Below, piece after piece: positions 3,532 to 43,035 of a DNA stretch of 64,000 nt. A program made the translations under genes and the position numbers. The notes below the pieces were generated by a model. The model saw nothing but the letters and a program-made list of their open reading frames with translations, searched no databases and was not told the DNA's origin. Source of the DNA: Myxococcales bacterium (lineage in GTDB: Bacteria > Myxococcota_A > Polyangia > Polyangiales > Polyangiaceae); NCBI GenBank assembly GCA_025351875.1, contig JANXVA010000180.1, positions 16,517-80,516 of the forward strand. Direction: 5' to 3'. How positions within the stretch are numbered: position 1 is the first letter of the stretch; each line of letters begins with the position of its first letter.

Positions 3532-3532
3532 G

Positions 3533-4156: not shown

Positions 4157-4181
4157 GGTCTCTCGTTGTACCGTGCCCTCC

Positions 4182-4610
4182 ATGGCGAAAGCGACGGCGA
4201 AGGCGACCTTCCTCATCAAGAGCGAACCGTCCGTCTACTCGTTCGAGCAGCTTCTCGGCGACGGGTCGACGACGTGGGATGGCGTGCGCAACTACGAGGC
4301 GCGCAACAACCTGCGGGCCATGAAGAAGGGCGACACTCTCCTCTACTACCACTCGAACGAGGGCAAGGAGATCGTCGGGCTGGCGCGTGTCGCCAAGCCG
4401 GCGTTTCAGGACCCGAAGACCGAGGACGACTGGAGCGCCATCGAGGTCACGCCGATCAAGAAGCTCGCGGTGCCCGTGACCCTCGCGCAGGCGAAGGCCC
4501 ATCCGCTCCTCTCGAAGATGGCCCTCGTGAAGAAATCGCGGATCAGCGTGGTCCCGGTGACAGACGCCGAGCTCGCAGTGGTGCTGGCCCTCGCGAAGAC
4601 GAAGCTCTAG
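4182..4610 (+). CDS. EVE domain protein
   Basis: LIKSEP, WDGVRNYEARN, GDxLLYYHS, KSRISVVPV. Confidence 0.9.
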   Translation: MAKATAKATFLIKSEPSVYSFEQLLGDGSTTWDGVRNYEARNNLRAMKKGDTLLYYHSNEGKEIVGLARVAKPAFQDPKTEDDWSAIEVTPIKKLAVPVTLAQAKAHPLLSKMALVKKSRISVVPVTDAELAVVLALAKTKL

Positions 4611-9327: not shown

Positions 9328-9372
9328 CAGGTAGGACTCCGCCGCTCCGCCCCTCACGCTTCGCGTGAGCCT
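9328..9372. repeat. REP-like hairpin element, copy 1 (related to 39634-39668)
   Basis: CAGGTAGGACTCCGCC...CTCCGCCCCTCACGC-TTC-GCGTGAGCCT begins right after TGA 9325-9327. Confidence 0.6.
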
Positions 9373-9677
9373 CCCCGTGGGCGATGCGCGCTCCCGCGTG
9401 CATGTAGCGACGCGACGCATGCAGGTGGGAAGACGCCAGCTGCGGCGCGCTTGGGGCCCCACTGACCAACGTGCTTGCACGGCATGCGCGTGAAACGCAC
9501 GCGGCAAGGGTAGGTGGGGCACGCGGCGCCGGGATCCGGTCCGCGTCGAAGCATGACAGCGGCCTGCGCGCGGGAGCGGCCCGCTCCCCTCCGCCGCCGA
9601 CACCTGGACGCTCTGCGATCCCAACGGGCCGTTTAGGTTGCGCCCTGGAGATCCCCAACGAGGTAGCCTCCGCGCTC

Positions 9678-10376
9678 GTGGGGGAGAAGTTCACGTTCGA
9701 TGTCGCCACGCACGGGAGCACCACCGCGCTCGTGTATCGCGCGCGCGACCCGATCGGCGCGACGCTGATCCTCGCGCATGGTGCCGGCTCCGCGCAGACC
9801 CACCCGTTCATGGTCGACATGGCGCAACGGATCTCGAAGCGCGGCATCGACGTCGTGACCTTCAATTTTCTCTACACCGAGCGCGGTCGGAAGATGCCCG
9901 ATCGCAACGACCTGCTCGAGACCTGCTGGCATGCCGCGATCGCGAGCGTGCGCGCGCGCGCCGGGCTGCCCACCGAGCGCATCTTCTACGGCGGCAAGTC
10001 GATGGGTGGCCGCATCATCTCGAACATCGCAGCCTCCACGGCCGGCGAGGGGCTTGCCGCGAGCGGTCTCGTGTTCCTCGGCTATCCCCTCCATCCCGCG
10101 AACAAGCCCGAGGTCCGGCGCGACGCGCACCTGCCGCGCGTTCCGTTTCCGATGCTCTTCGTCCAGGGCTCGCGTGATCCGCTCGGCGATGCCGCCGAGA
10201 TCCGCAAGGTCGTACGCCGGCTGCCGCATGCGGCCCTCCATGTCGTTCGTGGTGGCGATCATTCGCTCGAGCTGCTCGCGCGCGACGGAGGAGCCGCAAA
10301 GCGCGCGCCGGCCCTCGAGGGCGCCGCCGATGCAATCGCCGCGTTCGTCCAGAAGTTCGGGGGTACGCTCGCCTGA
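9678..10376 (+). CDS. Alpha/beta hydrolase (KANSL3/dienelactone-hydrolase-like)
   Basis: AHGAG, GGKSMGGR nucleophile elbow, LGYPLHP, QGSRD, GGDHS; start GTG 9678 uncertain. Confidence 0.88.
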   Translation: MGEKFTFDVATHGSTTALVYRARDPIGATLILAHGAGSAQTHPFMVDMAQRISKRGIDVVTFNFLYTERGRKMPDRNDLLETCWHAAIASVRARAGLPTERIFYGGKSMGGRIISNIAASTAGEGLAASGLVFLGYPLHPANKPEVRRDAHLPRVPFPMLFVQGSRDPLGDAAEIRKVVRRLPHAALHVVRGGDHSLELLARDGGAAKRAPALEGAADAIAAFVQKFGGTLA

Positions 10377-14623: not shown

Positions 14624-16045
14624 CTACTTCGGGATCGTGAGCGTTTCGATCGTCGAGCCGTCGGCCCGCAACGCGGTCCATTTCAGCTGGGTCGCAGACG
14701 CCGACATCACGGCGAAGCCGTGGACGCTCTCTCGCGCCTGGATGTAGGGCTGCGTCGTCTTGAACGCGTAGAGGTCGGCACCGCCGCCGCCGAACACGAG
14801 ATAGCGTGTTCCGAGCGCGTCCGTCGTCGCCGTGCCGTCGGAGGTCCCCGTGCCGCCGGTCATCGGCTTGGTCGACTCGTAGCTGTGGACGTGCCCGTTG
14901 AGCACGGCGTTCACGTGGTACTGGTCGTAGAGCGGCGCCCAGGCGGCGCGCAGGTCGAGCGCGGGCGAGTGCCCGCTCGATGTCGTGTACATCGGCTGAT
15001 GGTGCATCGCGACGACGAAGGGCGTGCGCGCGCGGTCGACCGCGCTCAGCGTGAGGTCGAGAAACGTGCGCTCCACGCCCGTGATGACCGAGCTCGAAGA
15101 CACCGTGTCGTTGAGCGTGACGAACCGCAGCGGTCCGTAGGTCGTCGCGTACCACTCCTCGACTCCGCTCGCGCTCCCGTTGTCGGGGAGCGCGAACTGC
15201 GCGAAGTAGGCCTCGTTCAGGCCCTCGTGGTTTCCGTGCGCCCAGATGCCCGGGAGCTGAGCGAACAGCTCGGGCGCGGCGCCGAAGAGCGCGTCCCATT
15301 GCGACTGGATCCCGCCGCTCGCTACGGCGTCGCCGGTCATCACCATCGCCGTCGCGCCTTGCGCGATCGCCGACTTCGCGAGGTTCGCCCAGACGTCCGG
15401 GTTCGTCCGCGTATCGCCGCCGACGAGGATCTTCACGTCGGTCGCCGCATCGGGGGCCGTCGTCACCTTGTAGACCGCGCTCCGTCCCTTCGAGCCGCCT
15501 GCGTCGTAGTAATACGTGCGCCCGGCCTGGAGCCCGCAGAGGTGCACCTCATGCTGACGGCGATCGGTTGCGCCGTAGTCGAACGAGAAGCCGTGCGCGA
15601 TCTTGTCGAGCTGCGTCGGCGAGTCGCCGAACCGCACCTCTGTCGCGTTCGTCGCGCCGTCCGTGGCCCACTGCACGACCACCGAGGATGATGCGTTGCC
15701 GGCGATCGTGAGGTGGAGGTTCTTCGGCGTCGGCGCCGCCCCGGACGCGTCCTCGTGGAACTTCGCGGCAGGCTTGCTCGGGCTGACCTGCCGGATCGGG
15801 TACCCGCATCGATAGGCGGTGTAGGGAAACGCGACCGGACCGCTCTCCGTCGGAGGTGCCCACGCTGCGTTGGGATCGCCGTCCTTGCCGGGCTCGACCT
15901 GACCGCGAGGGGTCGGGTCCGGCTCGACCGGCGGAGCCGGCGGCACCGGGTCGACCGGCGTGGCGGTCCCGCTGCTCGACGAGCATGCGGCGGCGTATCC
16001 CGCGAAACCCACCAGCCCGAGCCACAACCATGTTCGCGTCGTCAA
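14624..16045 (-). CDS. Purple acid phosphatase-like lipoprotein (FN3 + metallophosphoesterase)
   Basis: Lipobox YAAAC; GDTR, GDAV, GNHE, HQP, GHVHSYE. Confidence 0.88.
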   Translation of the reverse strand: MTTRTWLWLGLVGFAGYAAACSSSSGTATPVDPVPPAPPVEPDPTPRGQVEPGKDGDPNAAWAPPTESGPVAFPYTAYRCGYPIRQVSPSKPAAKFHEDASGAAPTPKNLHLTIAGNASSSVVVQWATDGATNATEVRFGDSPTQLDKIAHGFSFDYGATDRRQHEVHLCGLQAGRTYYYDAGGSKGRSAVYKVTTAPDAATDVKILVGGDTRTNPDVWANLAKSAIAQGATAMVMTGDAVASGGIQSQWDALFGAAPELFAQLPGIWAHGNHEGLNEAYFAQFALPDNGSASGVEEWYATTYGPLRFVTLNDTVSSSSVITGVERTFLDLTLSAVDRARTPFVVAMHHQPMYTTSSGHSPALDLRAAWAPLYDQYHVNAVLNGHVHSYESTKPMTGGTGTSDGTATTDALGTRYLVFGGGGADLYAFKTTQPYIQARESVHGFAVMSASATQLKWTALRADGSTIETLTIPK

Positions 16046-16075
16046 TGGCGCCTCCGTCGGAGTGAGAGCTTAGCA

Positions 16076-16103
16076 TTGCCCTGGAAAATGGCTCCACTAT
16101 GCT
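16076..16103 (+). promoter_or_regulatory. Sigma-70-type promoter implying a leaderless transcript
   Basis: TTGCCC-N16-TATGCT, then 6 nt to ATG 16110; no SD. Confidence 0.5.
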
Positions 16104-16109
16104 CCGCGC

Positions 16110-17927
16110 ATGGCGACGATGGTGCACGAGGTCCTGGCGGAGACGGTCGCGAAGCACGGTGACCGCGCTGCGCTCCGGGTGAAGAGCGGCGGCAGCTGGA
16201 AGACGACCACGTGGAGCTCGTACGGTCGCGACGCGCGACGGGCTGCTCGCGCGCTCCTCAAGCTCGGCATCGAGCCCGGTAAGGGCGTCAGCTTGATTGG
16301 GCAGAACAGCGCCGAGTGGCTCATCGCCGACGTCGGCGCCATCCTTGCCGGTGCGATGCCCGCGGGTATCTACACGACGAACAGCGCCGAGCAGGTCCGG
16401 TACATCACCGATCACTGCGAGGCGAAGGTCTCGTTCGCGGACACCGCGGCGCAGGTCGCGAAGTTCGTCGCCGAGAAGGACCACATGCCGCGTCTCGAGG
16501 TCGTCGTCCAGATGACCGGCAAGCCCGCCGAAGGCGCGGGCGGCGGCAAGCTCCGCGTGATGGGCTGGGAAGACTTCCTCGCGCTCGCCGAGGACGTCCC
16601 CGAGGCCGACCTCGAGGCGCGCATGAAGGCGCAGAAGCCCGACGACGTGTGCACGCTCATCTACACGTCGGGAACGACCGGCGAGCCGAAGGCCGTGATG
16701 ATCACCCACACGAACATCGTGTGGACGGCGGGGACCTTGCTCCCGACGTTGAAGCTCGGCCCCGAGGACATCACGCTCAGCTATCTCCCGCTCAGCCACA
16801 TCGCCGAGCAGGTCCTCACGATCCATGGGCCGATGGCGATGGGCTCGGTCGTGTACTTCGCCGAGAGCATCGAGAAGCTCGGCGAGAACCTCGCCGAGGT
16901 CCGGCCCACCCTCTTCATGGGCGTCCCCCGCGTCTGGGAGAAGATCCAGGCGAAGATGCAGGCGGCCGGGGCCAAGGCGCCGCCGATGCGGAAGAAGCTC
17001 GTTGCCTGGGCGAGGAAGACCGGCCTCGCCGGCGGCTATGCCGAGCAGCGCGGCGAGAAGAAGCCGCTGCTCTTTCCCGTCGCGAAGAAGATCGTCTTCG
17101 ACAAGGTTCGAGAGCGCCTCGGCCTCGACCGCACGCGCCTCTGCGTGACGAGCGCCGCGCCGATCTCGCGCACCACGCTCGAGTTCTTCCTCGCGCTCGG
17201 CATCCCGGTGCTCGAGGTCTACGGCATGAGCGAGTGCACCGGCCCCGGCACGTACTCGCCGCCCGAGCGCTATCGCACCGGCAAGTGCGGCATCTGTCTG
17301 CCCGGCGCCGAGCTCAAGCTCGCCGAGGACGGCGAGATCTGCATGCGCGGCAAGCACGTCTTCAAGGGCTACCTGAAGGATCCCGAGTCTACGGCCGCCG
17401 CGCTCGACGCCGAGGGCTGGCTCCACTCCGGCGATATCGGAACGATCGACGCGGAAGGGTTCCTGCAGATCACCGATCGCAAGAAGGATCTGCTCATCAC
17501 CGCGGGCGGCGAGAACATCGCGCCGCAAGTGCTCGAAGGTCACCTCAAGGGGATCCCGGTCGTCGCTCAGGCGGTGGTCATCGGCGATCGTCGCAAGTAC
17601 CTCTCCGCGCTCGTGACGCTCGATCCCGAGCGCGTGAAGACCGAAGCCGAGCTCGCCGGCTCGCCCGCGCGGAGCGTCGACGACGCCGCGACCTGCACCG
17701 TGTTCCGCCGTCACCTCGAGAAGCAGATCGACACGATCAACGAGAAGCTCGCGCGCGTGCAGACGATCAAGCGCTTCGCGATCATCCCGCGCGAGTTCAC
17801 GATCGAGGGTGGCGAGCTGACGCCGACCATGAAGGTGAAGCGCAAGGTCGTGAACGAGAAGTACAAGGTCGAGATCGAAGCGCTCTACCCCTCCGAGGAA
17901 GGCGAGGGGGCCTCCGCCCAGGCCTGA
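16110..17927 (+). CDS. Long-chain fatty-acid--CoA ligase (AMP-dependent synthetase)
   Basis: YTSGTTGEPK, YGMSE, WLHSGDIG, DRKKDL, GGENIAP, TPTMKVKR. Confidence 0.93.
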   Translation: MATMVHEVLAETVAKHGDRAALRVKSGGSWKTTTWSSYGRDARRAARALLKLGIEPGKGVSLIGQNSAEWLIADVGAILAGAMPAGIYTTNSAEQVRYITDHCEAKVSFADTAAQVAKFVAEKDHMPRLEVVVQMTGKPAEGAGGGKLRVMGWEDFLALAEDVPEADLEARMKAQKPDDVCTLIYTSGTTGEPKAVMITHTNIVWTAGTLLPTLKLGPEDITLSYLPLSHIAEQVLTIHGPMAMGSVVYFAESIEKLGENLAEVRPTLFMGVPRVWEKIQAKMQAAGAKAPPMRKKLVAWARKTGLAGGYAEQRGEKKPLLFPVAKKIVFDKVRERLGLDRTRLCVTSAAPISRTTLEFFLALGIPVLEVYGMSECTGPGTYSPPERYRTGKCGICLPGAELKLAEDGEICMRGKHVFKGYLKDPESTAAALDAEGWLHSGDIGTIDAEGFLQITDRKKDLLITAGGENIAPQVLEGHLKGIPVVAQAVVIGDRRKYLSALVTLDPERVKTEAELAGSPARSVDDAATCTVFRRHLEKQIDTINEKLARVQTIKRFAIIPREFTIEGGELTPTMKVKRKVVNEKYKVEIEALYPSEEGEGASAQA

Positions 17928-30882: not shown

Positions 30883-32967
30883 ATGGACAGTCGCTACGTG
30901 GACGCGGACGCCTCGCGCGCGGTCTCGGAATGTGCCGGCCGAGCTCCGCCCGTTGGCGAGCCTGTCGCGCTCCGCACGTACACGGCGCGTCTCCTCGGCG
31001 CTGACGACTCGCTCGTCCTCCACGGCGGAGGAAACACGAGCGTGAAGTCGGAGGCTCGGACGCTCTTCGGCGAGACAGTCGCCGTCATCCACGTGAAGGG
31101 CTCCGGCTGGGACCTCGCCACGATCGAGCCGCCGGGGCACCCCGCGGTCCGTATGGCCGCCCTGGAGCGCATGCTCTCGCTCCCCACGATGACCGACGAG
31201 CAGATGGTCAACGAGATGCGCCTCGCGCTCCTCGACGCCAACGCACCCACGCCGAGCGTCGAGACGCTACTCCATGCCGCGCTGCCGGCACGCTTCATCG
31301 ATCACACGCACGCGGATGCAATCCTCGCCGTCGCCGACCAGGAGCAGGGCGAGAGCATCTGCCGCGAGCTCTTCGGCGAACGCCTCCTCTGGGTGCCGTA
31401 CGTCATGCCGGGCTTCGGCCTCGCGAAGGCGTGCAAGAAGGCGTGGGACGAGGCGATCGGCGCAGGGCGCGCGCCCACGGTCATGGTGCTCGAGCGCCAC
31501 GGAGTCTTCACGTTCGGCGAGAGCGCGAAGGAGAGCTATGAGCGCATGATCGAGGCGGTGACGATCGCCGAGCGCTTCGCCGCCGATCGCATGGAGACCG
31601 CCAACGTGCTCGGCGGCACACCGGACGACCGGCTCGAGGCCGCCGTCGTCACGGTCGTGCGCGGTGCGCTCGCCAACGTGTCCGGCGAGCCGCCGGAGCG
31701 CGCGCCCATCGTCGCCGTGCGTGCGGGCGAATGGATCCTCGGGTTCCTCGAGCGCAAGGATGCGTACGAGCTCGTCCAGCGCGGCTGCGCCACGCCCGAT
31801 CACGTGATTCGGACGAAGCCGACAGCGCTGCTGATTCCGCACGTGGAGAGCGAGGAGCCGAACGCGCTCGCCGCGCGCATCGAGGGCGAGATCGCCGAGT
31901 ACGCGCGCCGCTACGATCGCTACTTCGAGAAGATGTGCGCGAAGAAGAACGTCACGCGCACGAAGCTCGATCCGTGGCCGCGCGTCATCCTCGTTCCTCG
32001 CGTCGGCATCCTCGCCGTCGGCAAGACCAAGAGAGACGCGGAGATCGCCGCCGACATCTACGAGCACACGATCCAGGTCATCACCGACGCCGAGGACGTC
32101 GGTCGCTACTCCCCGGTGAGCCTCGGCGACCTCTTCGACGTCGAGTACTGGAGCCTCGAGCAGGCCAAGATCAAGAAGGAGCCCGAGCTCCCGCTCGCCA
32201 AGCAGGTCGCGCTCGTCACCGGCGCGGCGTCCGGAATCGGTCGCGCGACGACCGCGCTCTTCATGGAGCTCGGCGCGCACGTCGTCGCCTGCGACCGCAA
32301 CGGGAACGCGCTCGACGCGATGGCCTCGGAGATTGGCGGCAAGAGGCGGCAGCAGCTCGTGACGTGCGTGACCGATGTCACGAACCGCGAGCAGGTCTCC
32401 CGCGCCTTCATGCTGGCCGCGCGGATGTTCGGCGGCGTCGACATCGTCGTCAGCAACGCCGGTGACGCGCCCGAGGGCCGGCTCGACTCCCCCGAGGGAG
32501 AGGAGGCGCTCCGTCGCTCGCTCGATACGAACCTCCTCGCTCACAACACCGTTGCCTCATGCGCCGTCGAGGCCATGCGGCGCGCCCGGCGTGGTGGGTG
32601 CTTGCTCTTCAACGCGAGCAAGAGCGCCTTCAATCCGGGACCGGGCTTCGGGCCCTACGCGGTCGCGAAGGCCGCGCTGGTCGCGCTCATGCGCCAGTAC
32701 GCGGTCGACCTCGGGCGCTTCGGGATCCGCGCGAACGCGGTGAACGCCGACCGGATCCGGACCGGCATCTTCTCGGGCGGCGTGCTCGAGTCGAGGGCTG
32801 CCGCGCGTGGTCTTTCCGTCGACGACTATTTTCGCTCGAATCTCCTCGGACGCGAGGTGACGGCGCACGACGTCGCTGCAGCGTTCGCGTATCTGGCCGA
32901 AGCGAGGGCGACGACCGGTTGCGTCATCACCGTCGACGGCGGGAACACCGCCGCATTTCCGCGTTGA
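30883..32967 (+). CDS. Bifunctional class II aldolase / short-chain dehydrogenase (RhaD-like fusion)
   Basis: GGGNTS, KGSG, PSVET.LH, DHTH, TPDH, EYWSLEQAK; TGAASGIG, YAVAK. Confidence 0.92.
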   Translation: MDSRYVDADASRAVSECAGRAPPVGEPVALRTYTARLLGADDSLVLHGGGNTSVKSEARTLFGETVAVIHVKGSGWDLATIEPPGHPAVRMAALERMLSLPTMTDEQMVNEMRLALLDANAPTPSVETLLHAALPARFIDHTHADAILAVADQEQGESICRELFGERLLWVPYVMPGFGLAKACKKAWDEAIGAGRAPTVMVLERHGVFTFGESAKESYERMIEAVTIAERFAADRMETANVLGGTPDDRLEAAVVTVVRGALANVSGEPPERAPIVAVRAGEWILGFLERKDAYELVQRGCATPDHVIRTKPTALLIPHVESEEPNALAARIEGEIAEYARRYDRYFEKMCAKKNVTRTKLDPWPRVILVPRVGILAVGKTKRDAEIAADIYEHTIQVITDAEDVGRYSPVSLGDLFDVEYWSLEQAKIKKEPELPLAKQVALVTGAASGIGRATTALFMELGAHVVACDRNGNALDAMASEIGGKRRQQLVTCVTDVTNREQVSRAFMLAARMFGGVDIVVSNAGDAPEGRLDSPEGEEALRRSLDTNLLAHNTVASCAVEAMRRARRGGCLLFNASKSAFNPGPGFGPYAVAKAALVALMRQYAVDLGRFGIRANAVNADRIRTGIFSGGVLESRAAARGLSVDDYFRSNLLGREVTAHDVAAAFAYLAEARATTGCVITVDGGNTAAFPR

Positions 32968-33029: not shown

Positions 33030-34883
33030 ATGGTTCTCGGTGGTCGAACGCTCGCGCTCTCTCTCGTGGCGCTGCTCGGATTCGGGGCGGCCGCAGGTGC
33101 ATGCGGAGGTGACGACTCGCCGGTGACCGCAACGGAGCCGTTGCCCGAGGCCGGCGTCCTCGATGCCGACGCCGGCAAGGTCGCGTCGCTCTGCGTCGAC
33201 GGCAAGCCGGTCGACTGGCCGCCCGGGCCCTACGAGCTCTCGCTCACGTCCGTGCTCCCGCCCGATCTCACGTTCGAGGGACCCACCGGCACCGTGAAGC
33301 TGAAGGACTACTTCGAGCCGTGCGCCTCGCAGTCTCGGTTGCTCGTCGTGCGCTCGGCACCGGCGTGGTGCGGGCCGTGCATCTGGCACGCGACGCACAC
33401 GACGCGCCTGCTCGACGACCCTCGCTTCGCGGGACGCATTCAGCTCGTCGATCTCCTCCTCGCGGACGAGGACAACATGCCGCCGACCGCCGCGGCGACG
33501 ATGCGCTGGAGCTCCCGCATCGACGCGCCACCCGCCGTGATGGGCAAGGTGGCGATGGATGCAAAGTACACGTTTGCCTCGGTGCTCCCCTCGAAGAACG
33601 TGCTGCCCGAGTACGTCGTCATCGACACCCGCACGATGAAGCTCCGCACGGTGCTCTCCAGCCCCGACCCGGAGACCCTCGGCGGTTACCTCGCGATCGA
33701 GCTCGCGTCGCTCGACGGCAAGCCCCGCCTGGACCTCCCGCCGCGGAAGCTCCACGACGGGCTCCTCACGGACGACGCGTGGGACATGCTCCAGGACATG
33801 AAGGTCCCAGGCGCGCCCCCGGTCGATCCGACGAACGAGTACGGCGACGTGCCCGCGGCCGCGGTGCTCGGCAAGAAGCTCTTCGAGGACCACTCGCTCT
33901 CTCCGTCTGGCGTCGTGGCGTGCGTCACATGCCACGACCCCGCCAAGTCCTTCGGTGACGGCCTGAAGACGGCAACTGGCGTGAGCGTCGGTGATCGCAA
34001 CTCGCCCGCCATCGCGCTCTCCTCCCACGCGCGCTGGCAGTTCTGGGACGGGCGCGCAGACACGCTCTGGATGCAGGCGCTCGGACCGTTCGAGAACGAC
34101 AAGGAGTTCGCGTCGAGCCGCCTCTTCGTCGTGCGGAAGATCGAGTCGACGTACAAGAACGAGTACACCGCTGTCTTCGGCGCGAAGTACCCGTTCCCGG
34201 ATCTCAGCGGCTTCGCGCTCGCGGCAGGCAAGCCCGGCGACGCTGCATACGACGCCCTTCCCCAGGCGACTCGTGATCTCGTCGCGCGCGTCTACGTCAA
34301 CGTCGGCAAGGCGATCGCCGCTTTCGAGCGCACGCTCCGCGTAAAGCCGAACGCGCTCGATCGGTATGCGGCCGGCGACACGACCGCGCTCGTCGGCAAG
34401 CAGCGTCAGGCGCTCGATCAGTTCTTCCACATCGGGTGCGTTCAGTGTCACTGGGGCCCACGCCTCAGCGACGACGCGTTCCACAACCTACGTTTTCCGA
34501 CCGGACGGCAGGATGGCCTCTCCGATCAGGGCCGCGCGGCGGTGCTCCTCGGTCTCGCCGCCTCGGAGTTCGTCGCGACCTCGAAGTGGAGCGACGCCCC
34601 GTCTGCCGCGAAGACCCTGCTCTTCACGACCGCGCCGCCGTCGATGATTGGCGCCTTCAAGACGCCGACCCTGCGCGGCGTTTCGTCGTCCGCGCCGTAC
34701 GGCCACGGCGGGACGTTCGCGCTGCTCAGCGAGGTGAGCAAGCACTACGGCACGCGTGCCATGGAGGTCGTCCCCGCCGCGGCCGCCGGCACGGTCGAGG
34801 AGTGGTCTCCGAACTTCGACGCGAACGTGCAGACCGACCTGCCCCAGCTCCTCGACCTCTTCACCGCGGACACGGGCCCTTAG
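33030..34883 (+). CDS. Lipoprotein: thioredoxin-like domain fused to di-heme cytochrome c peroxidase/MauG-family domain
   Basis: Lipobox AAGAC; WCGPC; GKKLFED, CVTCH, QFWDGRA, CVQCH, FKTPTLR, PYGHGG. Confidence 0.88.
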   Translation: MVLGGRTLALSLVALLGFGAAAGACGGDDSPVTATEPLPEAGVLDADAGKVASLCVDGKPVDWPPGPYELSLTSVLPPDLTFEGPTGTVKLKDYFEPCASQSRLLVVRSAPAWCGPCIWHATHTTRLLDDPRFAGRIQLVDLLLADEDNMPPTAAATMRWSSRIDAPPAVMGKVAMDAKYTFASVLPSKNVLPEYVVIDTRTMKLRTVLSSPDPETLGGYLAIELASLDGKPRLDLPPRKLHDGLLTDDAWDMLQDMKVPGAPPVDPTNEYGDVPAAAVLGKKLFEDHSLSPSGVVACVTCHDPAKSFGDGLKTATGVSVGDRNSPAIALSSHARWQFWDGRADTLWMQALGPFENDKEFASSRLFVVRKIESTYKNEYTAVFGAKYPFPDLSGFALAAGKPGDAAYDALPQATRDLVARVYVNVGKAIAAFERTLRVKPNALDRYAAGDTTALVGKQRQALDQFFHIGCVQCHWGPRLSDDAFHNLRFPTGRQDGLSDQGRAAVLLGLAASEFVATSKWSDAPSAAKTLLFTTAPPSMIGAFKTPTLRGVSSSAPYGHGGTFALLSEVSKHYGTRAMEVVPAAAAGTVEEWSPNFDANVQTDLPQLLDLFTADTGP

Positions 34884-34914
34884 CTCGGCCAGTCGGGCCC
34901 GCGCGAGGAGGTCG

Positions 34915-36798
34915 CTAGAACCGGATCGTGAGCTCGGCGCGTGCGCCGCTGAACGCGGGGAACACGCGACAGATGCCGCTCACGCAGCGAAGCCCGCCGC
35001 GGTTCTGTCCGCCGTAGAGGCGTAGGTTCGACTGGCTCGTGAACTTGTAGAGCACGCCGCCGTTGAAGTAGTCGTGCGGGAGGCCTTCGAGCGACGTGTA
35101 CTCGTAGCCCGTCGAGAAGATCCACTTCGGAGCGACCTTCAGCGCGAGCTGGTTGTCGCTCTGGAACCAGAGCTGCGGCTCGAACGTGTCCGGGTTGACG
35201 TTCTCGCGGTCCTGGATGCGGAAGCGGTGTCGTCCCGAGAGCTCGATGGAGTACGGGCCCGCGATGTACTTGGTGATTGAGTACTGGGCCGAGCCCTCGC
35301 GGTAATACGCGTGCCCGTCTCCCTTGATGTCGTGACGGGCGCCGAGATTGACGAACGCGATCGACTTGTCGTCGTCGAAGCGTGCCTCTGTTCCGACGCT
35401 CGCGTCGGTGACGTAGTTCGTCGTCTGGTCCTTGTTCGTCGCGGTGCTGCGCCCGAGCTGGTCGCACTGGCCTCCCGGCTGCTCGCTCAGGGACTTGAAG
35501 TAGCCGAACGTGCCATAGACGAGGACGGAGTCGGTGAGCCGGTAATCGAGGCGGTCGCGACCGCCGGTGACGCACGCATTGAAGAAGCCGAACATCGTGT
35601 CCGCGATGACGGGCTCGGCGGTGGGCGGGGCTGAGTAGGCGATGTTCCCGAACGCCGACGCGCGCGAGACCTCGACCGAAGCCGCGAGCGGGTAGAAGTT
35701 CCGATAGCTCTTCACCTCGACAGTGTTGGTGATGCGGCCACCGGAGGCGACGAAAGAGCCGTAGATCGCGTTGCCCTCGGAGAGCGCGCTGGTGGAGTCG
35801 CCGACGTCGCGCTTCTGGACTGCGCCTTCGATGTAGAGGTTGCCGTGGCCCCAGAGGTTCGGGACCTCGATCGTCTGGCTCGCGTTGATCGTCTGCCGCG
35901 ACTCGAACACAGGTCCGACCTTGTTGTTGCGCAGCTTGTCGAGAAACGTCGTGCGATCCGGCTCGTCGCACGTTCCGAACGGCACATCGAAGGTCGAGTC
36001 GTTGACCGAACCGTCTGCGTTGTAGTGGTACGGCGCGCAGCGTGAGAGGACGACGCCGTTCGTGGACAGGACGACCGGGAGACCGCGCCCCGCGGTGATC
36101 GACGCGCCCACGATGCGGTCGTTGCCGAAGACCGGCTGCGCGCCGAGCGCGTTGTTGCCGACCGTGCGCGGCAAGAAGAGCGCGCGGCCCGTCGGCTCGT
36201 CGACGCGCGCAGGGTTCGCGAGACCGGCGACGAGGGTGAGGCCGAAGATGTCCTTGGTGGCGACGACCTTGGCGCCGAGGAGCGTCGTGTCGATGCCGAG
36301 CTCGTCGACCTTCCGCATCGAGAGGATGAGGCCGCGCCCGAACTGCACGTACGCGTCGCCGGCGGTGACCTCGAGGCCGCCGTCCTTGTAGGTGAGGAAG
36401 ACCTTCGCCGGGTAGAGCGCATCGCGATAGCGGGTGGCGCCGTCCTTCTGGGCGTTCGCCTTCAGCTGCGGGTCCGGGAAGGTGCGATCCTCGGGGCGGA
36501 GCGCGTAGACGGACGAGTCGAGGCGAACGCCGAGCGTCAGCTTCTTCCAAGAGAGGACGGCGTTGAGGCGATTGAGCCAGGAGAAGTAACCCTGGTCGTT
36601 CTCGACCTCGCCAACGCGGGCGTTGAAGCGCTGCGCTACGATCGTCGTCTCGGTCACGTCGAGCGTGACCTTGCTGTTGTCGACCGTCGGAAGGTCGACG
36701 GCGAGCGCCGCGCGCGGGACGAAGGTGGCCGCCAGCGCCGCGAGCGCTGCGAACCCTCGACCTGCAGATCTTCTCCGCACCTGCGCCGCCCTAGCCAC
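34915..36798 (-). CDS. DUF6029-like outer-membrane beta-barrel protein
   Basis: Signal peptide; AGDAYVQFGRGLILS; C-terminus GQNRGGLRCVSGICRVFPAFSGARAELTIRF. Confidence 0.72.
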   Translation of the reverse strand: MARAAQVRRRSAGRGFAALAALAATFVPRAALAVDLPTVDNSKVTLDVTETTIVAQRFNARVGEVENDQGYFSWLNRLNAVLSWKKLTLGVRLDSSVYALRPEDRTFPDPQLKANAQKDGATRYRDALYPAKVFLTYKDGGLEVTAGDAYVQFGRGLILSMRKVDELGIDTTLLGAKVVATKDIFGLTLVAGLANPARVDEPTGRALFLPRTVGNNALGAQPVFGNDRIVGASITAGRGLPVVLSTNGVVLSRCAPYHYNADGSVNDSTFDVPFGTCDEPDRTTFLDKLRNNKVGPVFESRQTINASQTIEVPNLWGHGNLYIEGAVQKRDVGDSTSALSEGNAIYGSFVASGGRITNTVEVKSYRNFYPLAASVEVSRASAFGNIAYSAPPTAEPVIADTMFGFFNACVTGGRDRLDYRLTDSVLVYGTFGYFKSLSEQPGGQCDQLGRSTATNKDQTTNYVTDASVGTEARFDDDKSIAFVNLGARHDIKGDGHAYYREGSAQYSITKYIAGPYSIELSGRHRFRIQDRENVNPDTFEPQLWFQSDNQLALKVAPKWIFSTGYEYTSLEGLPHDYFNGGVLYKFTSQSNLRLYGGQNRGGLRCVSGICRVFPAFSGARAELTIRF

Positions 36799-36812
36799 GA
36801 GGGCTGGGATTG

Positions 36813-37391
36813 TTACTGCGGCGCCGGGGCCGGCGCAACGGACTCGAGCGCCTTCGCCACGTCCTTGGCGAGGAACTCTTCGTCACCGGGGTTGTACCCC
36901 TCGCGGATCGCCGTGATCTTCCCGGACCTGTCGATGAGCACCGAGAGGGGCGCCGACTTCTTCGGGTTGTAGAGCGAGGCGATGCGAGAATCCTCGTCGG
37001 TGAGCATCGGGAAGTTGAGCTGATTGCGACGAGCGAAGGCGGGAACGTTGGCGACCGTCTCCGGGCCGTCCATCGCGATGCCGAGGATGACGAAGCCCTT
37101 GGCCTTGTTCGCGTCGTACATCTTCCGCAGGTGCGGGAACTCGGCGACGCACGGCTCGCACCAGGTCGCGCAGAAGTTGAGCAGGACGACGTCCTTGCCG
37201 AGATGGCTCGACAGCTTGACGCTCTTGCCCTCGATGTCCCGCGCCGTGAAGTCGGACGCGGAAGCGCCCGCGCCGCCGGACCCAGCAGTCGTGGCTCCGC
37301 CTGGCGCGCCGCCTTCCTGACGCGCGCACCCGAGCGCGCTCGTCATGAGGACGAGCGCGCTGATCACGAGCCCGCGCGAGGCGCTGCTCAC
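36813..37391 (-). CDS. TlpA-like disulfide reductase lipoprotein
   Basis: Lipobox ALGC; LNFCATWCEPC; GTGA overlap with the upstream gene. Confidence 0.9.
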   Translation of the reverse strand: MSSASRGLVISALVLMTSALGCARQEGGAPGGATTAGSGGAGASASDFTARDIEGKSVKLSSHLGKDVVLLNFCATWCEPCVAEFPHLRKMYDANKAKGFVILGIAMDGPETVANVPAFARRNQLNFPMLTDEDSRIASLYNPKKSAPLSVLIDRSGKITAIREGYNPGDEEFLAKDVAKALESVAPAPAPQ

Positions 37392-38110
37392 TTGATCGAG
37401 CCGCTGTCGATCTTCCCGATCCAGCCGTCGACGTCAGCGAGGATGTCCGCCTCTTTCGTCGTGGCGCCGACGCCTGACGAGAGGATTTCCATCGTCTTCG
37501 CGTTGACGTTCGCGTTCCAGGGGAGCGCGGCGGCGTCGTAGAACGGACCGAAGTTCTTGTTCGAGGGGTCGAGGAGCTGCGTGTAGGGCGCCTTGAACTG
37601 CGAGACCCAGCGATCGAGATCCTTCGTGGTGGCGGGGCTGCCTGGCGTGGGGCCTTCGGCGAGGCTGATGATCCACGCGACCTTGCGGTCCGCGAGCGCC
37701 TGGCGCAGCGGGACGATCGTCTTCGTCTCTTCCTGGCAGTAGACGCACCAGCTGCCCGAGGCCTGGATGTGGATCAGCTTGTAGGAGGTGCCGGTCGGGT
37801 CGAAGAGCGTCGCCATCGAGATGGGCTGGAGGCCCTGCGACGTGTCGCCATTCGGGTAGCCGAGGAACTTGTAGTTCGCGAGCTTGTTGCCGGCCTTGTC
37901 GCCGAGGCGCGGGTTCGTACCGATGTTGTCGGTCGGGTACGCGACGCCCTGCGGGTTCTTGTCCGGTGCGGCGGCGGCGGCGGTGTCGCCGTCTCCAGCG
38001 AGGCCCTGGTCCGGGTTGGTGCCGCCGCTGGACGTCGCGGGGGTGCTCGACGACGAGCACGCCGCGAGAGCAAGGACGGCGAGGCTGAGCGAAAGGCTGA
38101 CGATCTTCAT
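37388..38110 (-). CDS. Thioredoxin-fold lipoprotein
   Basis: Lipobox LAAC; GSWCVYC; cis-Pro-like ALPWN. Confidence 0.82.
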   Translation of the reverse strand: MKIVSLSLSLAVLALAACSSSSTPATSSGGTNPDQGLAGDGDTAAAAAPDKNPQGVAYPTDNIGTNPRLGDKAGNKLANYKFLGYPNGDTSQGLQPISMATLFDPTGTSYKLIHIQASGSWCVYCQEETKTIVPLRQALADRKVAWIISLAEGPTPGSPATTKDLDRWVSQFKAPYTQLLDPSNKNFGPFYDAAALPWNANVNAKTMEILSSGVGATTKEADILADVDGWIGKIDSGSIK

Positions 38111-38154
38111 GGGGGGTAACCTCGGAGTGACGAACTGCGTGCGGTAGCGGCGGC

Positions 38155-38182
38155 AGGGTACTTCCAACCACACCTCCGTCAA
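38155..38182 (-). promoter_or_regulatory. Sigma-70-type promoter for the trx-tlpA-barrel operon
   Basis: TTGACG-N16-TACCCT on the minus strand, about 45 nt before ATG 38110. Confidence 0.45.
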
Positions 38183-38391
38183 GGCAAGCCGTGCTCTTAT
38201 TTATGGCCCTTACGCGCGGCGGCGTCCAACGGGTCCGCAATTCTTCCCGAATCCCGACTGGCGCGGCGACTGCGGCCTGTGGCCATACCCAGCTCTGGGG
38301 GCAGATCGCCCCAAACGGGCCTCGGCAGACCAGGAAACGATGGGCGGACGAGCGCTTGTCACCCTCTCGGCCCAGCGGTAATGGCGGGGCC

Positions 38392-39633
38392 ATGAAGTCC
38401 GTCTTCGCTTTCGGCGCGAGCCTCACGGCTGCCGCACTGCTCGTTGCCCTGCTGCCGTCGTGCTCGTCGACGACGGCCACTCCGTCGACCACCACCGGCG
38501 GCCTGCAGACGAGCTGTGACGAGAGCCAGTGCCTCCAGGGCAACAAGTGCCTCCACGGTGACGGCGAGTTCAAGTGCCGCAAGCCTTGCTCGAGCAACAA
38601 CGATCCCGCGACCAATTGCCCGTCGGGTGCGGTCTGCGTGGCCGCCAACGCTCCCGCGACGATCGCCGAGACGTGCGTCAAGGGCACGGAGGAGGTGACT
38701 GCCGCGAGCTGCTCCGCGCTCACCAAGCTCGGCGGAACGCATCTCACGTTCTACACCTGCGGCAACGGCAATGCGCCGCCGAAGGGCTGCATCGCCACTG
38801 CCGAACCGAACAAGTGGTGCTGCAACGACGCGCCCGCCGAGACGTACGCCCAGCCGTTCTGCAAGCGAATCACGAGCGAGATCAAGGCCGGGCCGAAGCA
38901 GTGGGGCGCCGGCTGCAACGCGACCGCCGGCCTCGACAACAACGTCGACTGCGACAGCGCGCAGGGCTTCTTCTGCTTCGGCACGTCGCCGGCGGACGGC
39001 GCGTCGTACTGCACGCGCTACGACTGCCACGCCGACAGCGAGTGCGCGCCGAACTTCTACTGCGCCACGATCAACGTCGCGCCGAACGTCACGACGACGA
39101 AGCCGACCATCCACCAGACCACGACGGCCTGCTTGCGTCGCGACTACTGCGCGCCGTGCACCGCCGATCTCGACTGCCCCACGCTCAACGGCCTCACGCA
39201 GCACTGCGTGCCGGACGACAACAGCGTCGGCTTCTGCGCGCCCGAGTGCGCGACGTCGCAGAACTGCGCGCACGACGCGAAGTGCGTGGACGGCGGCATC
39301 GGCGTCAAGACCTGCTACCCGCGCGCCGGCGTGTGTGTCGGTGACGGCGGGCTCTGCGCGCCGTGCCGCAACGATGCCGACTGCGGTGACGATGGCGCCT
39401 GCGTGCGTGGCCAGTACACGACGGAGCTGTCGTGCGCGAAGAAGTCCGAGATCCCGTGCAAGACGGGCTCGGTCGCGGGCACGGACTTCAAGTGTCCCGC
39501 CTCGTCTGCCCCGAAGGCGACGATCCGTTGCCGCGGCGACGCGTTCGAGCAGGTCCCGAAGGACTACTGCCACGGCCTCTACCCGTTCGGCGAGTCCGCC
39601 GACGTCGGCTGCTGGACGCCCGCGAAGCTCTAG
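38392..39633 (+). CDS. Very Cys-rich lipoprotein (43 Cys)
   Basis: Lipobox LPSC; repeated CxxCxxxxDC modules. Confidence 0.82.
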   Translation: MKSVFAFGASLTAAALLVALLPSCSSTTATPSTTTGGLQTSCDESQCLQGNKCLHGDGEFKCRKPCSSNNDPATNCPSGAVCVAANAPATIAETCVKGTEEVTAASCSALTKLGGTHLTFYTCGNGNAPPKGCIATAEPNKWCCNDAPAETYAQPFCKRITSEIKAGPKQWGAGCNATAGLDNNVDCDSAQGFFCFGTSPADGASYCTRYDCHADSECAPNFYCATINVAPNVTTTKPTIHQTTTACLRRDYCAPCTADLDCPTLNGLTQHCVPDDNSVGFCAPECATSQNCAHDAKCVDGGIGVKTCYPRAGVCVGDGGLCAPCRNDADCGDDGACVRGQYTTELSCAKKSEIPCKTGSVAGTDFKCPASSAPKATIRCRGDAFEQVPKDYCHGLYPFGESADVGCWTPAKL

Positions 39634-39949
39634 CAGGTTGGGCTCCGCCCCTCGGCTTCGCTGAGCCTTGGGATGCGACCTGGCCGGCTGTGATTCGCCT
39701 TCGGCGAACGCGCCGCAGCGGCGCCGATTTCACGCCTGGGGTGCGTGGGGCTGTGAGCTTCCGCTCGTGGGGTCTCGCGATTGCTTACTCACGGGAAACG
39801 GCGTGCGCTGCGCACGCCGGTCGGCACGCAGCGCCGAATCTCCCTGGGGGAAGCTCGCTGCGGAGCAGCGAGGAGGACCGGAGGTCCCCAACGTGAGAGC
39901 GACCTGGCCGGCTGTGATTCGCCTGCGGGCGCCGACGTTCACGCCTGGG
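39634..39949. repeat. Hairpin-rich intergenic element with internal direct repeats
   Basis: Starts with the motif shared with 9328; 26-bp identical repeat at 39675-39700 and 39899-39924; TTCACGCCTGGG at 39729 and 39938; six triloop hairpins. Confidence 0.65.
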
Positions 39950-41021
39950 TCGTGGGAGCGCGGGCGGGGACGGTTTCTTGCTCGCGCTGCTGGACGCGTG
40001 CGGCCCACAGCGATCGGTCGTCGACCATCGCGAGCATCGCCCACTGGCTCGCCGCGGCGATCGCGAGCGCCTGGAGGGGCACGTCAAATGCGCCGTGGGA
40101 GAGGAGCGCGAGGGCGATCGCGGCGAGGACCGCGAGCGGCTGGGCGCGCTGCACGAGGGCGACGATCGCGAGCAAGATGCTCGCGGGCACGAGGAACGCC
40201 GCGATGCTGGTGAGTGCGTAGGGGACCGGAAGGCCCGAAGTCTGGGAGAGCGAGCCGCGCAGGACGGCTTCGACCGTCGACGGTGTGTCGCCGCTGTCGT
40301 GCGCGGCGAGGTAGGTGATCGCGAAGGCCACCACGATTGCGCCGTTCGCGAGCATGCGACCGCGCCAGCGCGAGCGTGTGCCGAGCCATGCAGCCGCGAG
40401 CAGCGTGGCGAACGCCTGGATGGCGATCGTGAGCGTCGCGACGGTGCGACCCGCGTGGTAGAGCCCGAGGCTCGCGCGCTCGCCGGCCAGCGCCGTCAGC
40501 TCCCAGGCGATCGGCCGGAGCAGACCCGCGATGGCGAGCAGCGCGAGGAGAGCGCCGACTGCGCGCGTGTGCGCGACGCGGAGGGTGCTCGCCGTCGCGA
40601 TCATCGCGAGCACGCTGGCCACGAGCGCGAGCGCGAGCGCCGCCATGGTGTGGAGTCGATGCATGACGGCGGGGGAGGCGAGCGCGACGACGAGTCCGGA
40701 GATGGCGACGACCCCGCTACGTGAGCCGACGCCGATCCTCTGGACGCGTGCGAGCTCGAAGGAGCCACCGCAGATGAGCGCGATCAGCAGCGCCGCGAAC
40801 GTGTAGCTGAGGGTCGCCGACAGGCCCTCGGTGAGCTCCATCGAACGCTGCGAGGCGATGCCGCGCATCCCCGGCGCGATCAGCACACCGAAGACCTTCG
40901 CCAGCGCTCCGACCACGGCGGTGAGCACGAGCGCGCCGCCCGCCCACGCGATGCTAGCGGTCGGTCGTGGGTTGGCTTCGCCCGACGAGCGCGAGGGTTC
41001 TGACGGGTTCGACGCGTCCAT
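39939..41021 (-). CDS. Multi-pass membrane protein of unknown function
   Basis: About 9-10 hydrophobic segments; ATG 41021. Confidence 0.75.
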   Translation of the reverse strand: MDASNPSEPSRSSGEANPRPTASIAWAGGALVLTAVVGALAKVFGVLIAPGMRGIASQRSMELTEGLSATLSYTFAALLIALICGGSFELARVQRIGVGSRSGVVAISGLVVALASPAVMHRLHTMAALALALVASVLAMIATASTLRVAHTRAVGALLALLAIAGLLRPIAWELTALAGERASLGLYHAGRTVATLTIAIQAFATLLAAAWLGTRSRWRGRMLANGAIVVAFAITYLAAHDSGDTPSTVEAVLRGSLSQTSGLPVPYALTSIAAFLVPASILLAIVALVQRAQPLAVLAAIALALLSHGAFDVPLQALAIAAASQWAMLAMVDDRSLWAARVQQREQETVPARAPTTQA

Positions 41022-41077
41022 CACGGGGGCGAGGTTGGAGCCTACCACGCCTTTCAGTGCGCGCGCGGCGCGGCGCT

Positions 41078-42838
41078 TCAGCCTGCAGCGGGAAGCGCCT
41101 GCGGATCCCGAAGCGACGGCGGGGCCGCGCCCTCGCGGAGCTCGTGCAGGTTCACCGGAGGCGGCGCGCCGCGCTCCTGCGGTGCCTTCGGGCCCGGGCC
41201 CGGCGGCTGCGGCTCCTCGACCGGCCCTTTGGCCGGCGTGTTGAGGAGGAAAGGACGCGCGTGCATGGTCGAGCACGCGAACACCTCGTCACGGTGAAAC
41301 TCCCAGTGGAGGTACACGTTGCCGTCGGGAGAGACGATCGCGCCTGGCGCAGGGCCGAACGGCTGCGCGCGATGCACCGCGTCGAGCGCGGCGATGTCGA
41401 ACGCGGTGATGCCGCTCGTCTTCACGACGCCGAGCTTCACGATGCGGCCCTCCTTCGGGCTCACGACGATCTCGATGCGTGTGATCAGCCTCGGCGAGTT
41501 GAGCGGGTGCGTCTTCGGCAGGTTGTCGAGCGAGCCGAGGAAGCTGTCCGCGAAGAGCGGGTGGATGCGGTTGTGGATCGTGTTGAGGTACGAGGCGAAC
41601 GGGACGGCCGCGGTGTTGAGGGCCGTCTGGTTGCCGGGCTTGACGCTCGACACGTAGTTCTCGATCGCGTTCTTCCAGCGCTCGAAGTTGGAGGCCGTCC
41701 ACGAACCGCGATGCTCGCTCTTGCGGCGCTCGCCGTCGGCATCGCGCTCCTTGCGAAGTTGCTCCGACCCGACGACGGCGACGACGCCCTTCGTCGAGAG
41801 GTTGAGGTTCACCTGGCCCGGGCCGGGGCTTCCGCCGAGGCCGAGCCATTTGGTCGGCTGCTGCGCGTTAGGGACGACCGGCTTTCGCTGCTGGTTCGTG
41901 GTGCCGGCGATCGGATCCTGGGCGGCCTGCGCGCCGGGCTTCACCGGTGTGAACCACGCAGCGCCGTTCGGCGACTCGGCGAGCTCGGGAGACGGCGACG
42001 GCTGCGCGCCCGGCGCGAGCTGCGGCGGGGTCTCCTTCTGCGTCGTCGGGCTGGGCGTGCGACCGTCACCGCCGGACTTCGGGATGCTCTCCGCCGGCGG
42101 AGCGGTGACCGCGGCCGTGGCCATCGGCTTCTCGATCGGCTTGTTGTCGCGCTGGACGTCGAACTCGGTGCCCTTCTCGCCGGGCGCGTTGTCCTTGTTG
42201 CCTTTGTGCTCGTCGCTATCGGCGATCTTCGTCCGCACGCTGTCGCCGGTGTGGTCCTTCGGCCCTGCGGTCTTGTTCGCGCCGGGGGTCGGGTTCTCGT
42301 CGTCCTGATCGTGCGCGGTCTGCGTCGCGACCTTCTCTTCTTCGACCTTGTTCGCCTCGTCGGCGATGAAGCGGGCGTTCGGGTTGTCTTCTTGCTTCGG
42401 CTGCGCGTGCTGCTTCACCGCGATGCGCTGGTCGGCCTTGAGCGGCTGCTCGTCGAGCTTCTTCAGCGGGTCGTCCGGCTTGACGACGAGCTTCACCTCC
42501 TGCTTCGGCGGCTCGACCTTCTTCGGCTCTTCAGCCTTCTTCGGCGGCTCGGGCTTCGGCTCGTCCTTCTTCGCCACCGGCGGCGGCGCGGGCGGCTCCT
42601 CGGGCTCGTCCTCCTTGGGCTTCGCGCCCACGTCGACGACGGCGATGTCGAACGACTGTTCGCTGGCGCGCGTGCGCTCTCGCGCCTGCGCTCCGAGGAG
42701 TGAGAGGTATTGGCGGTCGTCCGAGTACTTGCGGAGCTGCTTCGAGACCTCCTCGGTCCCTCCGCCCATCATGAAATGCGCGCACACGGCCGCGCAAATC
42801 CACAGGACGATAGGAATCTCGGGGCCGCGTGATGCCAT
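41078..42838 (-). CDS. TonB/TolA-family energy transducer with long linker
   Basis: N-terminal TM with His (AAVCAH), Pro/Lys/Glu-rich spacer, TonB_C-like end (VVKTSGITAFDIAALDAV..PFGPAP). Confidence 0.8.
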   Translation of the reverse strand: MASRGPEIPIVLWICAAVCAHFMMGGGTEEVSKQLRKYSDDRQYLSLLGAQARERTRASEQSFDIAVVDVGAKPKEDEPEEPPAPPPVAKKDEPKPEPPKKAEEPKKVEPPKQEVKLVVKPDDPLKKLDEQPLKADQRIAVKQHAQPKQEDNPNARFIADEANKVEEEKVATQTAHDQDDENPTPGANKTAGPKDHTGDSVRTKIADSDEHKGNKDNAPGEKGTEFDVQRDNKPIEKPMATAAVTAPPAESIPKSGGDGRTPSPTTQKETPPQLAPGAQPSPSPELAESPNGAAWFTPVKPGAQAAQDPIAGTTNQQRKPVVPNAQQPTKWLGLGGSPGPGQVNLNLSTKGVVAVVGSEQLRKERDADGERRKSEHRGSWTASNFERWKNAIENYVSSVKPGNQTALNTAAVPFASYLNTIHNRIHPLFADSFLGSLDNLPKTHPLNSPRLITRIEIVVSPKEGRIVKLGVVKTSGITAFDIAALDAVHRAQPFGPAPGAIVSPDGNVYLHWEFHRDEVFACSTMHARPFLLNTPAKGPVEEPQPPGPGPKAPQERGAPPPVNLHELREGAAPPSLRDPQALPAAG

Positions 42839-43035
42839 GTTGTTGGGAGAGGCCGAGTGACACTGCAAGGATGCGGCCTGATTGCAGCGCCGTCCAGACT
42901 CCTCAAGCTAGCATCCACAATGGGGCAGACCAATCTGTGTGCCCGTGAAAGATCTAACGGGATCGTTAGGTTTTCCACGGCACTGCTCCCGCCAGATGGG
43001 TGCGTGCTTGTCGCAGGCGTCGCTCGCCGGCGTGG

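Follow-up and report, generated by a model that had tools for sequence, protein, structure and literature searches.

Do five neighbouring genes that all centre on cysteine chemistry form one functional unit at the outer membrane, and what would such a unit do? The question was raised by a 64,000 nt stretch of Myxococcales DNA (the window, in whose numbering positions are given), the host of which is a Labilithrix-type soil myxobacterium of high GC content (about 68%). Between 33030 and 39633, two lipoproteins with a CxxC thioredoxin motif (trxL and a TlpA-like protein), a DUF6029 barrel, a Cys-rich lipoprotein (cysR), and a thioredoxin-peroxidase fusion protein (Trx-peroxidase) are encoded side by side. 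An earlier reading made from the letters alone, here called the sequence-only reading, had proposed that all five belong to one disulfide-handling system of the outer envelope. We conclude, with a probability of roughly 0.6, that the locus is the Myxococcota form of a widespread envelope module in which one or two thioredoxin-fold CxxC proteins work with a DUF6029 barrel and its invariant Cys pair. The pairing of barrel and thioredoxin probably marks an undescribed thiol chemistry at the outer membrane.

In Gram-negative bacteria, the handling of disulfides is seen as a periplasmic process (DsbA/B, DsbC/D, and TlpA/ResA), and we know of no described disulfide pathway with a dedicated outer-membrane component. 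No description of the barrel-thioredoxin module was found in the literature that was searched, where DUF6029 itself is rarely mentioned. The conservation of the module, which includes gut and rumen lineages, points to an unrecognised redox layer of the envelope and would give a role to DUF6029, a domain of unknown function. Candidate roles are redox chemistry at the cell surface, a redox-gated channel, and a redox-dependent route for surface proteins.

Conservation of the Barrel-Thioredoxin Pairing

About 18 kb around the barrel gene was fetched from 40 Myxococcota genomes and searched with the window proteins and iterated profiles. A TlpA-type gene was located within 1.5 kb of the barrel in 38 of the 39 Myxococcota barrels that came from different genomes and had enough flanking sequence, and two such genes were present in 25 of them. 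The TlpA-type gene was nearly always directly upstream of the barrel on the same strand, and all partners kept the CxxC motif. When barrels from Myxococcota and other phyla with at least 1.3 kb on both sides were counted together (n = 68), 63 had a gene for a CxxC thioredoxin-fold protein within 1.5 kb, whereas the chance expectation for such a neighbour is about 1%, calculated from the 18 TlpA-like genes in the 8.9 Mb host genome. The sequence-only reading had staked its proposal on such neighbours and on conservation of the terminal Cys pair of the barrel, and it came through on both points, the pair being invariant. Because 63 of the 68 barrels have a thioredoxin-fold neighbour and the module is also duplicated within the host genome (see below), the clustering of Cys genes is far beyond chance.

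At least eight phyla of bacteria share the pairing. A TlpA-type gene is directly upstream of the barrel in Ignavibacteria, Sumerlaeota, Fibrobacterota, Eisenbacteria, and several unclassified bacteria, and WOR-3 barrels also adjoin a gene for a TlpA-type and/or an Omp28/DUF1223-type CxxC protein. In phyla other than Myxococcota, the partner TlpA has an ordinary signal peptide and is soluble in the periplasm, and the second thioredoxin, where present, is a lipoprotein with an acidic linker. A tree of the barrels separated into two clades, one of Myxococcota type and one of the FCB group, indicating that the family is old and was largely inherited vertically, and that the thioredoxin-barrel unit is likewise old.

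Bacteroidota offer an example of a second thioredoxin. In about 40 loci, a lipoprotein of about 280 aa is encoded directly downstream of the barrel; it matches Omp28 in Pfam (E = 1e-27) and cross-matches DUF1223, a thioredoxin-fold family (PMC3091736). These Omp28-type neighbours share a conserved EE-x-TGV-x-C-x-N-C-P site, with CxxC kept in 34 of 35, and one of them, compared with PDB sequences, matched the thioredoxin domains of PDI and DsbD. Acidic residues stand right behind the lipid-anchor Cys in 24 of the 26 with a recognisable lipobox, a stretch that we take to resemble the surface-export signal of Bacteroidota. Independent gene calls on a Bacteroidales contig placed AhpC-TSA, DUF6029, and Omp28 in an overlapping trio that has the housekeeping genes rimM and pgk on its two sides.

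Other genes were also observed next to the barrel. At loci L086, L111, L056, and L116 (Ignavibacteria, WOR-3, and Eisenbacteria), tandem Omp28/DUF1223-like CxxC genes precede TlpA and the barrel, some of them fused to PEGA or type IX secretion C-terminal sorting domains. In other Myxococcota families (L027, L030, L037, L042-L045, L054, and L114), a secreted protein of about 310 aa with two discoidin-type domains (NADase_transloc / F5_F8_type_C / DUF7402) and few cysteines is encoded directly downstream of the barrel, and a divergent gene for a sigma-54 response regulator is located upstream at these loci.

A Second Copy of the Module in the Host Genome

A second complete module, with the same four genes (cysR, trxL, TlpA, and the barrel) in the same arrangement, was found on another contig of the host genome (C764, locus L005). 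Its proteins are 45% (cysR, again divergent), 45% (trxL paralogue, WCPPC), 58% (TlpA paralogue, WCQPC), and 52% (barrel) identical to those of the window, and its barrel has CVSGICK at the C-terminal end. The two TlpA copies are mutual best matches among the TlpA-like genes of the genome. Each module copy adjoins a lipoprotein with two CxxCH motifs, which in L005 is encoded at 9085-10191, directly downstream of the barrel; the two heme lipoproteins are unrelated to each other and were ruled out as homologues. The L005 module is surrounded by copper proteins (2180-4381 and 15406-16356), namely, a cupredoxin-like lipoprotein and two multicopper oxidases.

The DUF6029 Barrel and Its Cysteine Pair

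The window barrel matched PF19494 with 71.3 bits (cut-off 27; E = 8e-20). The domain is carried by all of its close homologues, and PF19494 is present in 130 of the 301 sampled Myxococcota genomes. The family carries a signature, C-x-x-G-x-C-[RK]-x-x-P-x-[FY]-x-G, after which comes a final strand of nine residues; in the window barrel these are CVSGICRVFPAFSG and then ARAELTIRF. All 42 of the Myxococcota barrels that were examined had the signature nine residues before the end, and its two cysteines are the only ones in most members of the family. A DNA pattern back-translated from the commonest form, C-x-G-G-x-C-R-x-x-P-x-F-x-G, was then scanned against one genome per species and detected at least 80 loci; 77 of 80 were true barrels, 460-710 aa long, in which exactly nine residues separate the motif from the stop. 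Among the matches listed were barrels from Bacteroidota (Saprospiraceae, Chitinophagales, and Bacteroidales), Ignavibacteria, WOR-3, Fibrobacterota, Sumerlaeota, Gemmatimonadota, Eisenbacteria, and further Myxococcota, and in a 64-sequence alignment across these groups, C605, G608, C610, P614, and G618 were among the invariant residues. The sequence-only reading had pointed to both an internal Cys set and the terminal pair; only the latter is general, whereas C254, C277, C409, and C445 are kept in close relatives only.

An AlphaFold2 model built on the same alignment (predicted local distance difference test (pLDDT) 84.6; predicted template modelling score (pTM) 0.82) showed about 24 strands and no plug domain, with short turns alternating with long loops as expected if both ends are periplasmic. 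Judged by this strand/loop parity, the last two strands are prolonged on the extracellular side by a mini-hairpin (602-606/609-613) that bears C605 and C610, which places the Cys pair, by prediction, at the tip of the last extracellular beta-hairpin. Only barrels of 22 to 26 strands came up as fold matches, the best being FimD/PapC ushers, LptD, TonB-dependent receptors, and MtrB, at a template modelling (TM) score of about 0.4, and the barrel profile gave only noise against the sequences of solved structures. As modelled, the barrel is very large, has no close structural relative, and lacks a plug of its own. Barrels of this size are usually filled by a plug or a partner protein, and the predicted size and lack of a plug are compatible with a partner housed in the lumen, in the manner of LptDE or MtrAB.

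The Thioredoxin-Fold Partners

The TlpA-like protein matched PF00578 (E = 1e-25) and PF08534 (E = 6e-19) and has a WCEPC motif and a lipoprotein signal. Its closest solved relatives are ResA structures (4nmu, E = 1e-19; 1st9), and it scored below all NCBIfam equivalog cut-offs (ResA subfamily, 95 bits versus 170; TlpA, 42.6 versus 230; DsbE, 28.7 versus 123). For trxL, no Pfam match above threshold was obtained, and its L005 paralogue barely passes PF00578 (E = 4e-6). When family profiles were compared with hhalign, trxL matched the TlpA family at 99.6% (E = 1e-23), and CxxC was retained in all 28 family members found, so that trxL is, by these profile matches, a divergent TlpA-like lipoprotein. 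Homology of trxL to Omp28/DUF1223 was also considered and rejected: hhalign gave 17%, with the signal peptide alone aligned, and the TlpA family fits instead. PF11551 (Omp28) had no match anywhere in this genome. In position, trxL would hold the place of the Omp28-type proteins of Bacteroidota, by analogy and without homology. A single DsbD_TM gene was detected in the genome, unlinked to the module.

cysR and Trx-Peroxidase

The cysR protein has 43 Cys, exactly as counted in the sequence-only reading. The family to which it belongs is small, with about 200 members confined to Labilithrix- or Polyangiales-type bacteria; no match in Pfam or NCBIfam was obtained, and 35 of the 43 Cys are invariant across 42 homologues. 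The AlphaFold2 model (pLDDT 89.3) had no significant match among PDB folds (best E = 0.74), with only faint Dickkopf-like pieces; as modelled, cysR has an orphan disulfide-rich fold that is restricted to a single myxobacterial family. The host genome contains exactly two cysR genes, one beside each barrel. Among 61 genomes of this family, which are related and therefore not independent, 46 had the barrel and 37 had cysR, and the pattern was one-sided in that all 37 cysR genomes also had the barrel; the two genes were within 5 kb of each other in about 28 of the 37. Since cysR is confined to one myxobacterial family, it cannot account for the module as a whole, and its distribution characterises it as a lineage-specific addition to an older core. 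With 21 predicted disulfides and no known fold, it is a concrete candidate client for experiments.

Trx-peroxidase matched PF03150 (CCP_MauG; E = 6e-34) and has two CxxCH sites, CVTCH and CVQCH, with scores below the equivalog cut-offs for MauG (103 bits versus 444) and MbnH (90 versus 363). It occurs near the module only in the window and in L006 and L009, from two close relatives; the trxL profile gave the Trx domain of the L006 homologue a better score than the TlpA profile did. Counted by locus, the gene was within 8 kb of the module in only three of about seven of the closest loci and nowhere else, and its link to the module appears weak. Duplication, synteny, and co-occurrence support the two CxxC lipoproteins, the barrel, and cysR as a real functional unit, whereas Trx-peroxidase is not supported as a core member.

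Gene Organization of the Locus

The open reading frame listing and a gene call based on GC content at third codon positions (GC3) gave the same five genes (Table 1), at the positions and in the operon layout of the sequence-only reading, including the CVSGIC end of the barrel. The best named homologues were from Labilithrix sp. and L. luteola. The trxL stop and the tlpA GTG start overlap as GTGA, and only 14 nt separate tlpA from the barrel gene, indicating that the three minus-strand genes are read as a tight operon. The convergent stops of the barrel and Trx-peroxidase genes are 31 nt apart, again in exact agreement. The claim that the operon has its own promoter fared less well, as a simple sigma-70 scan revealed no promoter-like site (0 found, 0.3 expected), leaving the divergent intergenic region as its sole basis; a terminator scan was likewise uninformative.

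Table 1: Features of the module locus in the window.
Feature	Position	Strand	Remarks
Trx-peroxidase (lipoprotein; N-terminal trxL-like thioredoxin domain, WCGPC, fused to di-heme CCP/MauG-type peroxidase)	33030-34883	+	Convergent with the barrel gene; membership uncertain
DUF6029 barrel	34915-36798	-	Third operon gene; PF19494; signal peptide; C-terminal end ...CVSGICRVFPAFSGARAELTIRF
Barrel signature CVSGICRVFPAFSG (C605, C610)	34945-34986	-	Nine residues before the C-terminus; translation
TlpA/ResA-like thiol-disulfide oxidoreductase lipoprotein, WCEPC	36813-37391	-	Second operon gene; AhpC-TSA/Redoxin match
trxL (lipoprotein with long low-complexity linker and divergent TlpA/AhpC-TSA-like thioredoxin domain, WCVYC)	37388-38110	-	First operon gene
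Divergent intergenic region trxL/cysR, 281 nt	38111-38391	.	Presumed home of both promoters
cysR (43-Cys lipoprotein)	38392-39633	+	Divergent from the operon

On one side of the locus (30883-32967), a single 694-aa protein has a class II aldolase domain fused to a short-chain dehydrogenase domain. On the other, the minus strand downstream of cysR (39939-42868) encodes a polytopic membrane protein that matched no family, as well as a proline-rich protein, about 596 aa long, whose C-terminal domain is a TonB domain (PF13103, E = 1e-5).

Proposed Mechanism and Rival Explanations

We propose that reducing equivalents would enter the periplasm through the single CcdA/DsbD-type protein of the genome and pass to the ResA/TlpA-like protein. 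The second CxxC lipoprotein, which is trxL here and an Omp28/DUF1223-type protein in Bacteroidota, would sit at the plug-less barrel of about 24 strands or within it, comparable to LptE in LptD. Dithiol-disulfide exchange could thereby reach the outward-facing Cys hairpin of the barrel as well as outer-membrane and surface proteins, and the 21-disulfide cysR may have been added in the Labilithrix-type family as a lineage-specific client or partner. In this scheme, we infer the physical complex, the direction of electron flow, the surface exposure, and the substrate. In its strongest form, the module would be a thiol conduit across the outer membrane, leading from a TlpA-type reductase through a thioredoxin-fold lipoprotein threaded in the barrel to an outward-facing Cys pair that reduces or isomerises disulfides of the surface or the medium. 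We consider this form tentative and, on balance, doubtful.

Several points weigh against the module as proposed. Five of the 68 barrels had no thioredoxin neighbour, an adjacent TlpA is missing from about half of the Bacteroidota loci, and the DsbD/CcdA gene is unlinked. Contact of a thioredoxin with the barrel or its cysteines is something that we infer. The Cys pair is predicted to be extracellular, beyond the direct reach of a periplasmic reductase, and may be a structural staple; the position of the hairpin, as well as the possible plugging of the lumen by loops, is read from secondary-structure parity alone. As trxL is not homologous to Omp28, its role as a "second thioredoxin" would hold by analogy. 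The sole published comment on DUF6029 suggests polysaccharide export, on the strength of similarity to Wzi (PMC9603273).

The main rival takes TlpA and trxL as dedicated folding helpers for the disulfide of the barrel, and here also for the 21 disulfides of cysR, while the barrel itself would be a non-redox polysaccharide or solute channel. Parallels are DsbL/DsbI, which serve AssT as their single client, and LptD with its oxidative maturation. The predicted Cys pair flanks a tight turn at the hairpin tip on the extracellular side, as a staple would, and the likening of DUF6029 to the Wzi barrel by HHpred (PMC9603273) fits a channel; in L010, L011, L016, and L018, moreover, cysR is tied more closely to trxL/tlpA, with a shared divergent promoter, than to the barrel. 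However, most disulfide-stabilised outer-membrane proteins manage without an oxidoreductase of their own, and the partner motifs are of the reductase-type CxPC rather than the DsbA type. Many lineages retain two different CxxC proteins for one two-Cys client, and an empty 24-strand barrel, if modelled correctly, would still require a filler. We therefore regard this explanation as unlikely, although it deserves serious consideration; surface-export and heme roles are less likely.

According to a second rival, the barrel is a Slam-like translocon that displays the neighbouring lipoprotein (trxL, an Omp28-type protein, or cysR), and TlpA serves as a periplasmic holdase or reductase for the cargo. 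The variation of barrel neighbours by lineage (cysR, di-heme lipoproteins, discoidin-domain proteins, and Omp28-type lipoproteins) would suit a display device, as would the acidic residues behind the lipid-anchor Cys in 24 of the 26 Omp28-type neighbours with a recognisable lipobox. Yet these accessory genes are non-homologous between lineages, and several of their products are not lipoproteins; a translocon would also leave the invariant Cys pair unexplained, and the model predicts no periplasmic docking domain. This makes a display function quite improbable.

The module could also be a unit for cytochrome c or heme maturation, in which the ResA-like CEPC protein would reduce the CxxCH of the di-heme lipoproteins next to it, while the barrel would be a bystander or have to do with heme uptake. 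A lipoprotein with two CxxCH is encoded beside each module copy, the nearest solved relative is ResA, and HBP35, the one studied surface thioredoxin of Bacteroidota, binds hemin (PMC2907840). Against this, the two heme proteins are mutually unrelated, nearly all other barrel loci lack heme proteins, and the TlpA-barrel pairing persists where no cytochrome gene is nearby, which leaves this explanation with very little room. Chance adjacency of cysteine genes without a shared function, which only the general abundance of TlpA paralogues (18 in the genome) favours, is already refuted by the duplication, the 63 of 68 thioredoxin-fold neighbours, and the cross-phylum pairing.

Comparison with Known Systems

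Both operon thioredoxins share the fold and the W-C-x-x-C motif of TlpA/ResA/CcmG (DsbE-type) proteins, and the second has the CEPC of ResA. The claim that the system is distinct from DsbA/B/C/D is too strong, as both partners fall within the TlpA/ResA (DsbE) superfamily, in which the studied proteins receive their electrons from DsbD/CcdA, and the DsbD_TM gene of this genome could supply electrons in the same way. The members described so far act on cytochrome c, CuA/Sco, or spore-coat clients and are not known to pair with a barrel of the outer membrane, whereas both proteins here are lipoproteins in an operon that contains no cytochrome-maturation or Sco gene.

Among large barrels, LptD-LptE (26 strands, a lipoprotein plug, and assembly by disulfide rearrangement) resembles the module in that the barrel is very large and lacks an intrinsic plug domain, a lipoprotein partner is encoded along with it, and cysteines are conserved; LptD was also among the best fold matches. 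There is no sequence kinship, however, and the TM score was only about 0.4; the barrel described here has no periplasmic beta-jellyroll domain, and its partner is a redox protein. Wzi, with 18 strands and an N-terminal helical plug, is likewise an outer-membrane beta-barrel. The DUF6029 barrel differs in its predicted strand number of about 24, no Wzi was present among its top 50 fold matches, and no polysaccharide genes are nearby. The similarity detected by HHpred is between DUF6029 and plug-less Wzi-like barrels (PMC9603273).

MtrCAB provides a precedent for redox transfer through a barrel, as it also combines a large barrel (MtrB, one of the fold matches) with periplasmic and lipoprotein redox proteins. 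It is not homologous and uses heme chains, whereas the carrier here would be Cys pairs, which require contact and conformational exchange. If the thiol conduit were true, it would be the cysteine-pair counterpart of heme-based MtrCAB, extending from Myxococcota to Bacteroidota.

A close relative is the TlpA-DUF6029-Omp28 trio of Bacteroidota, a phylum in which one surface thioredoxin, HBP35 of Porphyromonas gingivalis, has been characterised (PMC2907840). When one Omp28-type neighbour was compared with PDB sequences, HBP35 was not named among the matches at E up to 1. The trio has the same barrel family, the same Cys-pair motif, a TlpA-type neighbour, and a second CxxC thioredoxin-fold lipoprotein. 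In the window, however, the second thioredoxin is TlpA-like rather than Omp28/DUF1223, both thioredoxins are lipoproteins, cysR is added, and the module is duplicated. What this study adds is the Myxococcota variant with its two TlpA-type lipoproteins, its duplication within one genome, and cysR, together with the wider spread of the module among phyla and the predicted extracellular Cys hairpin of the barrel.

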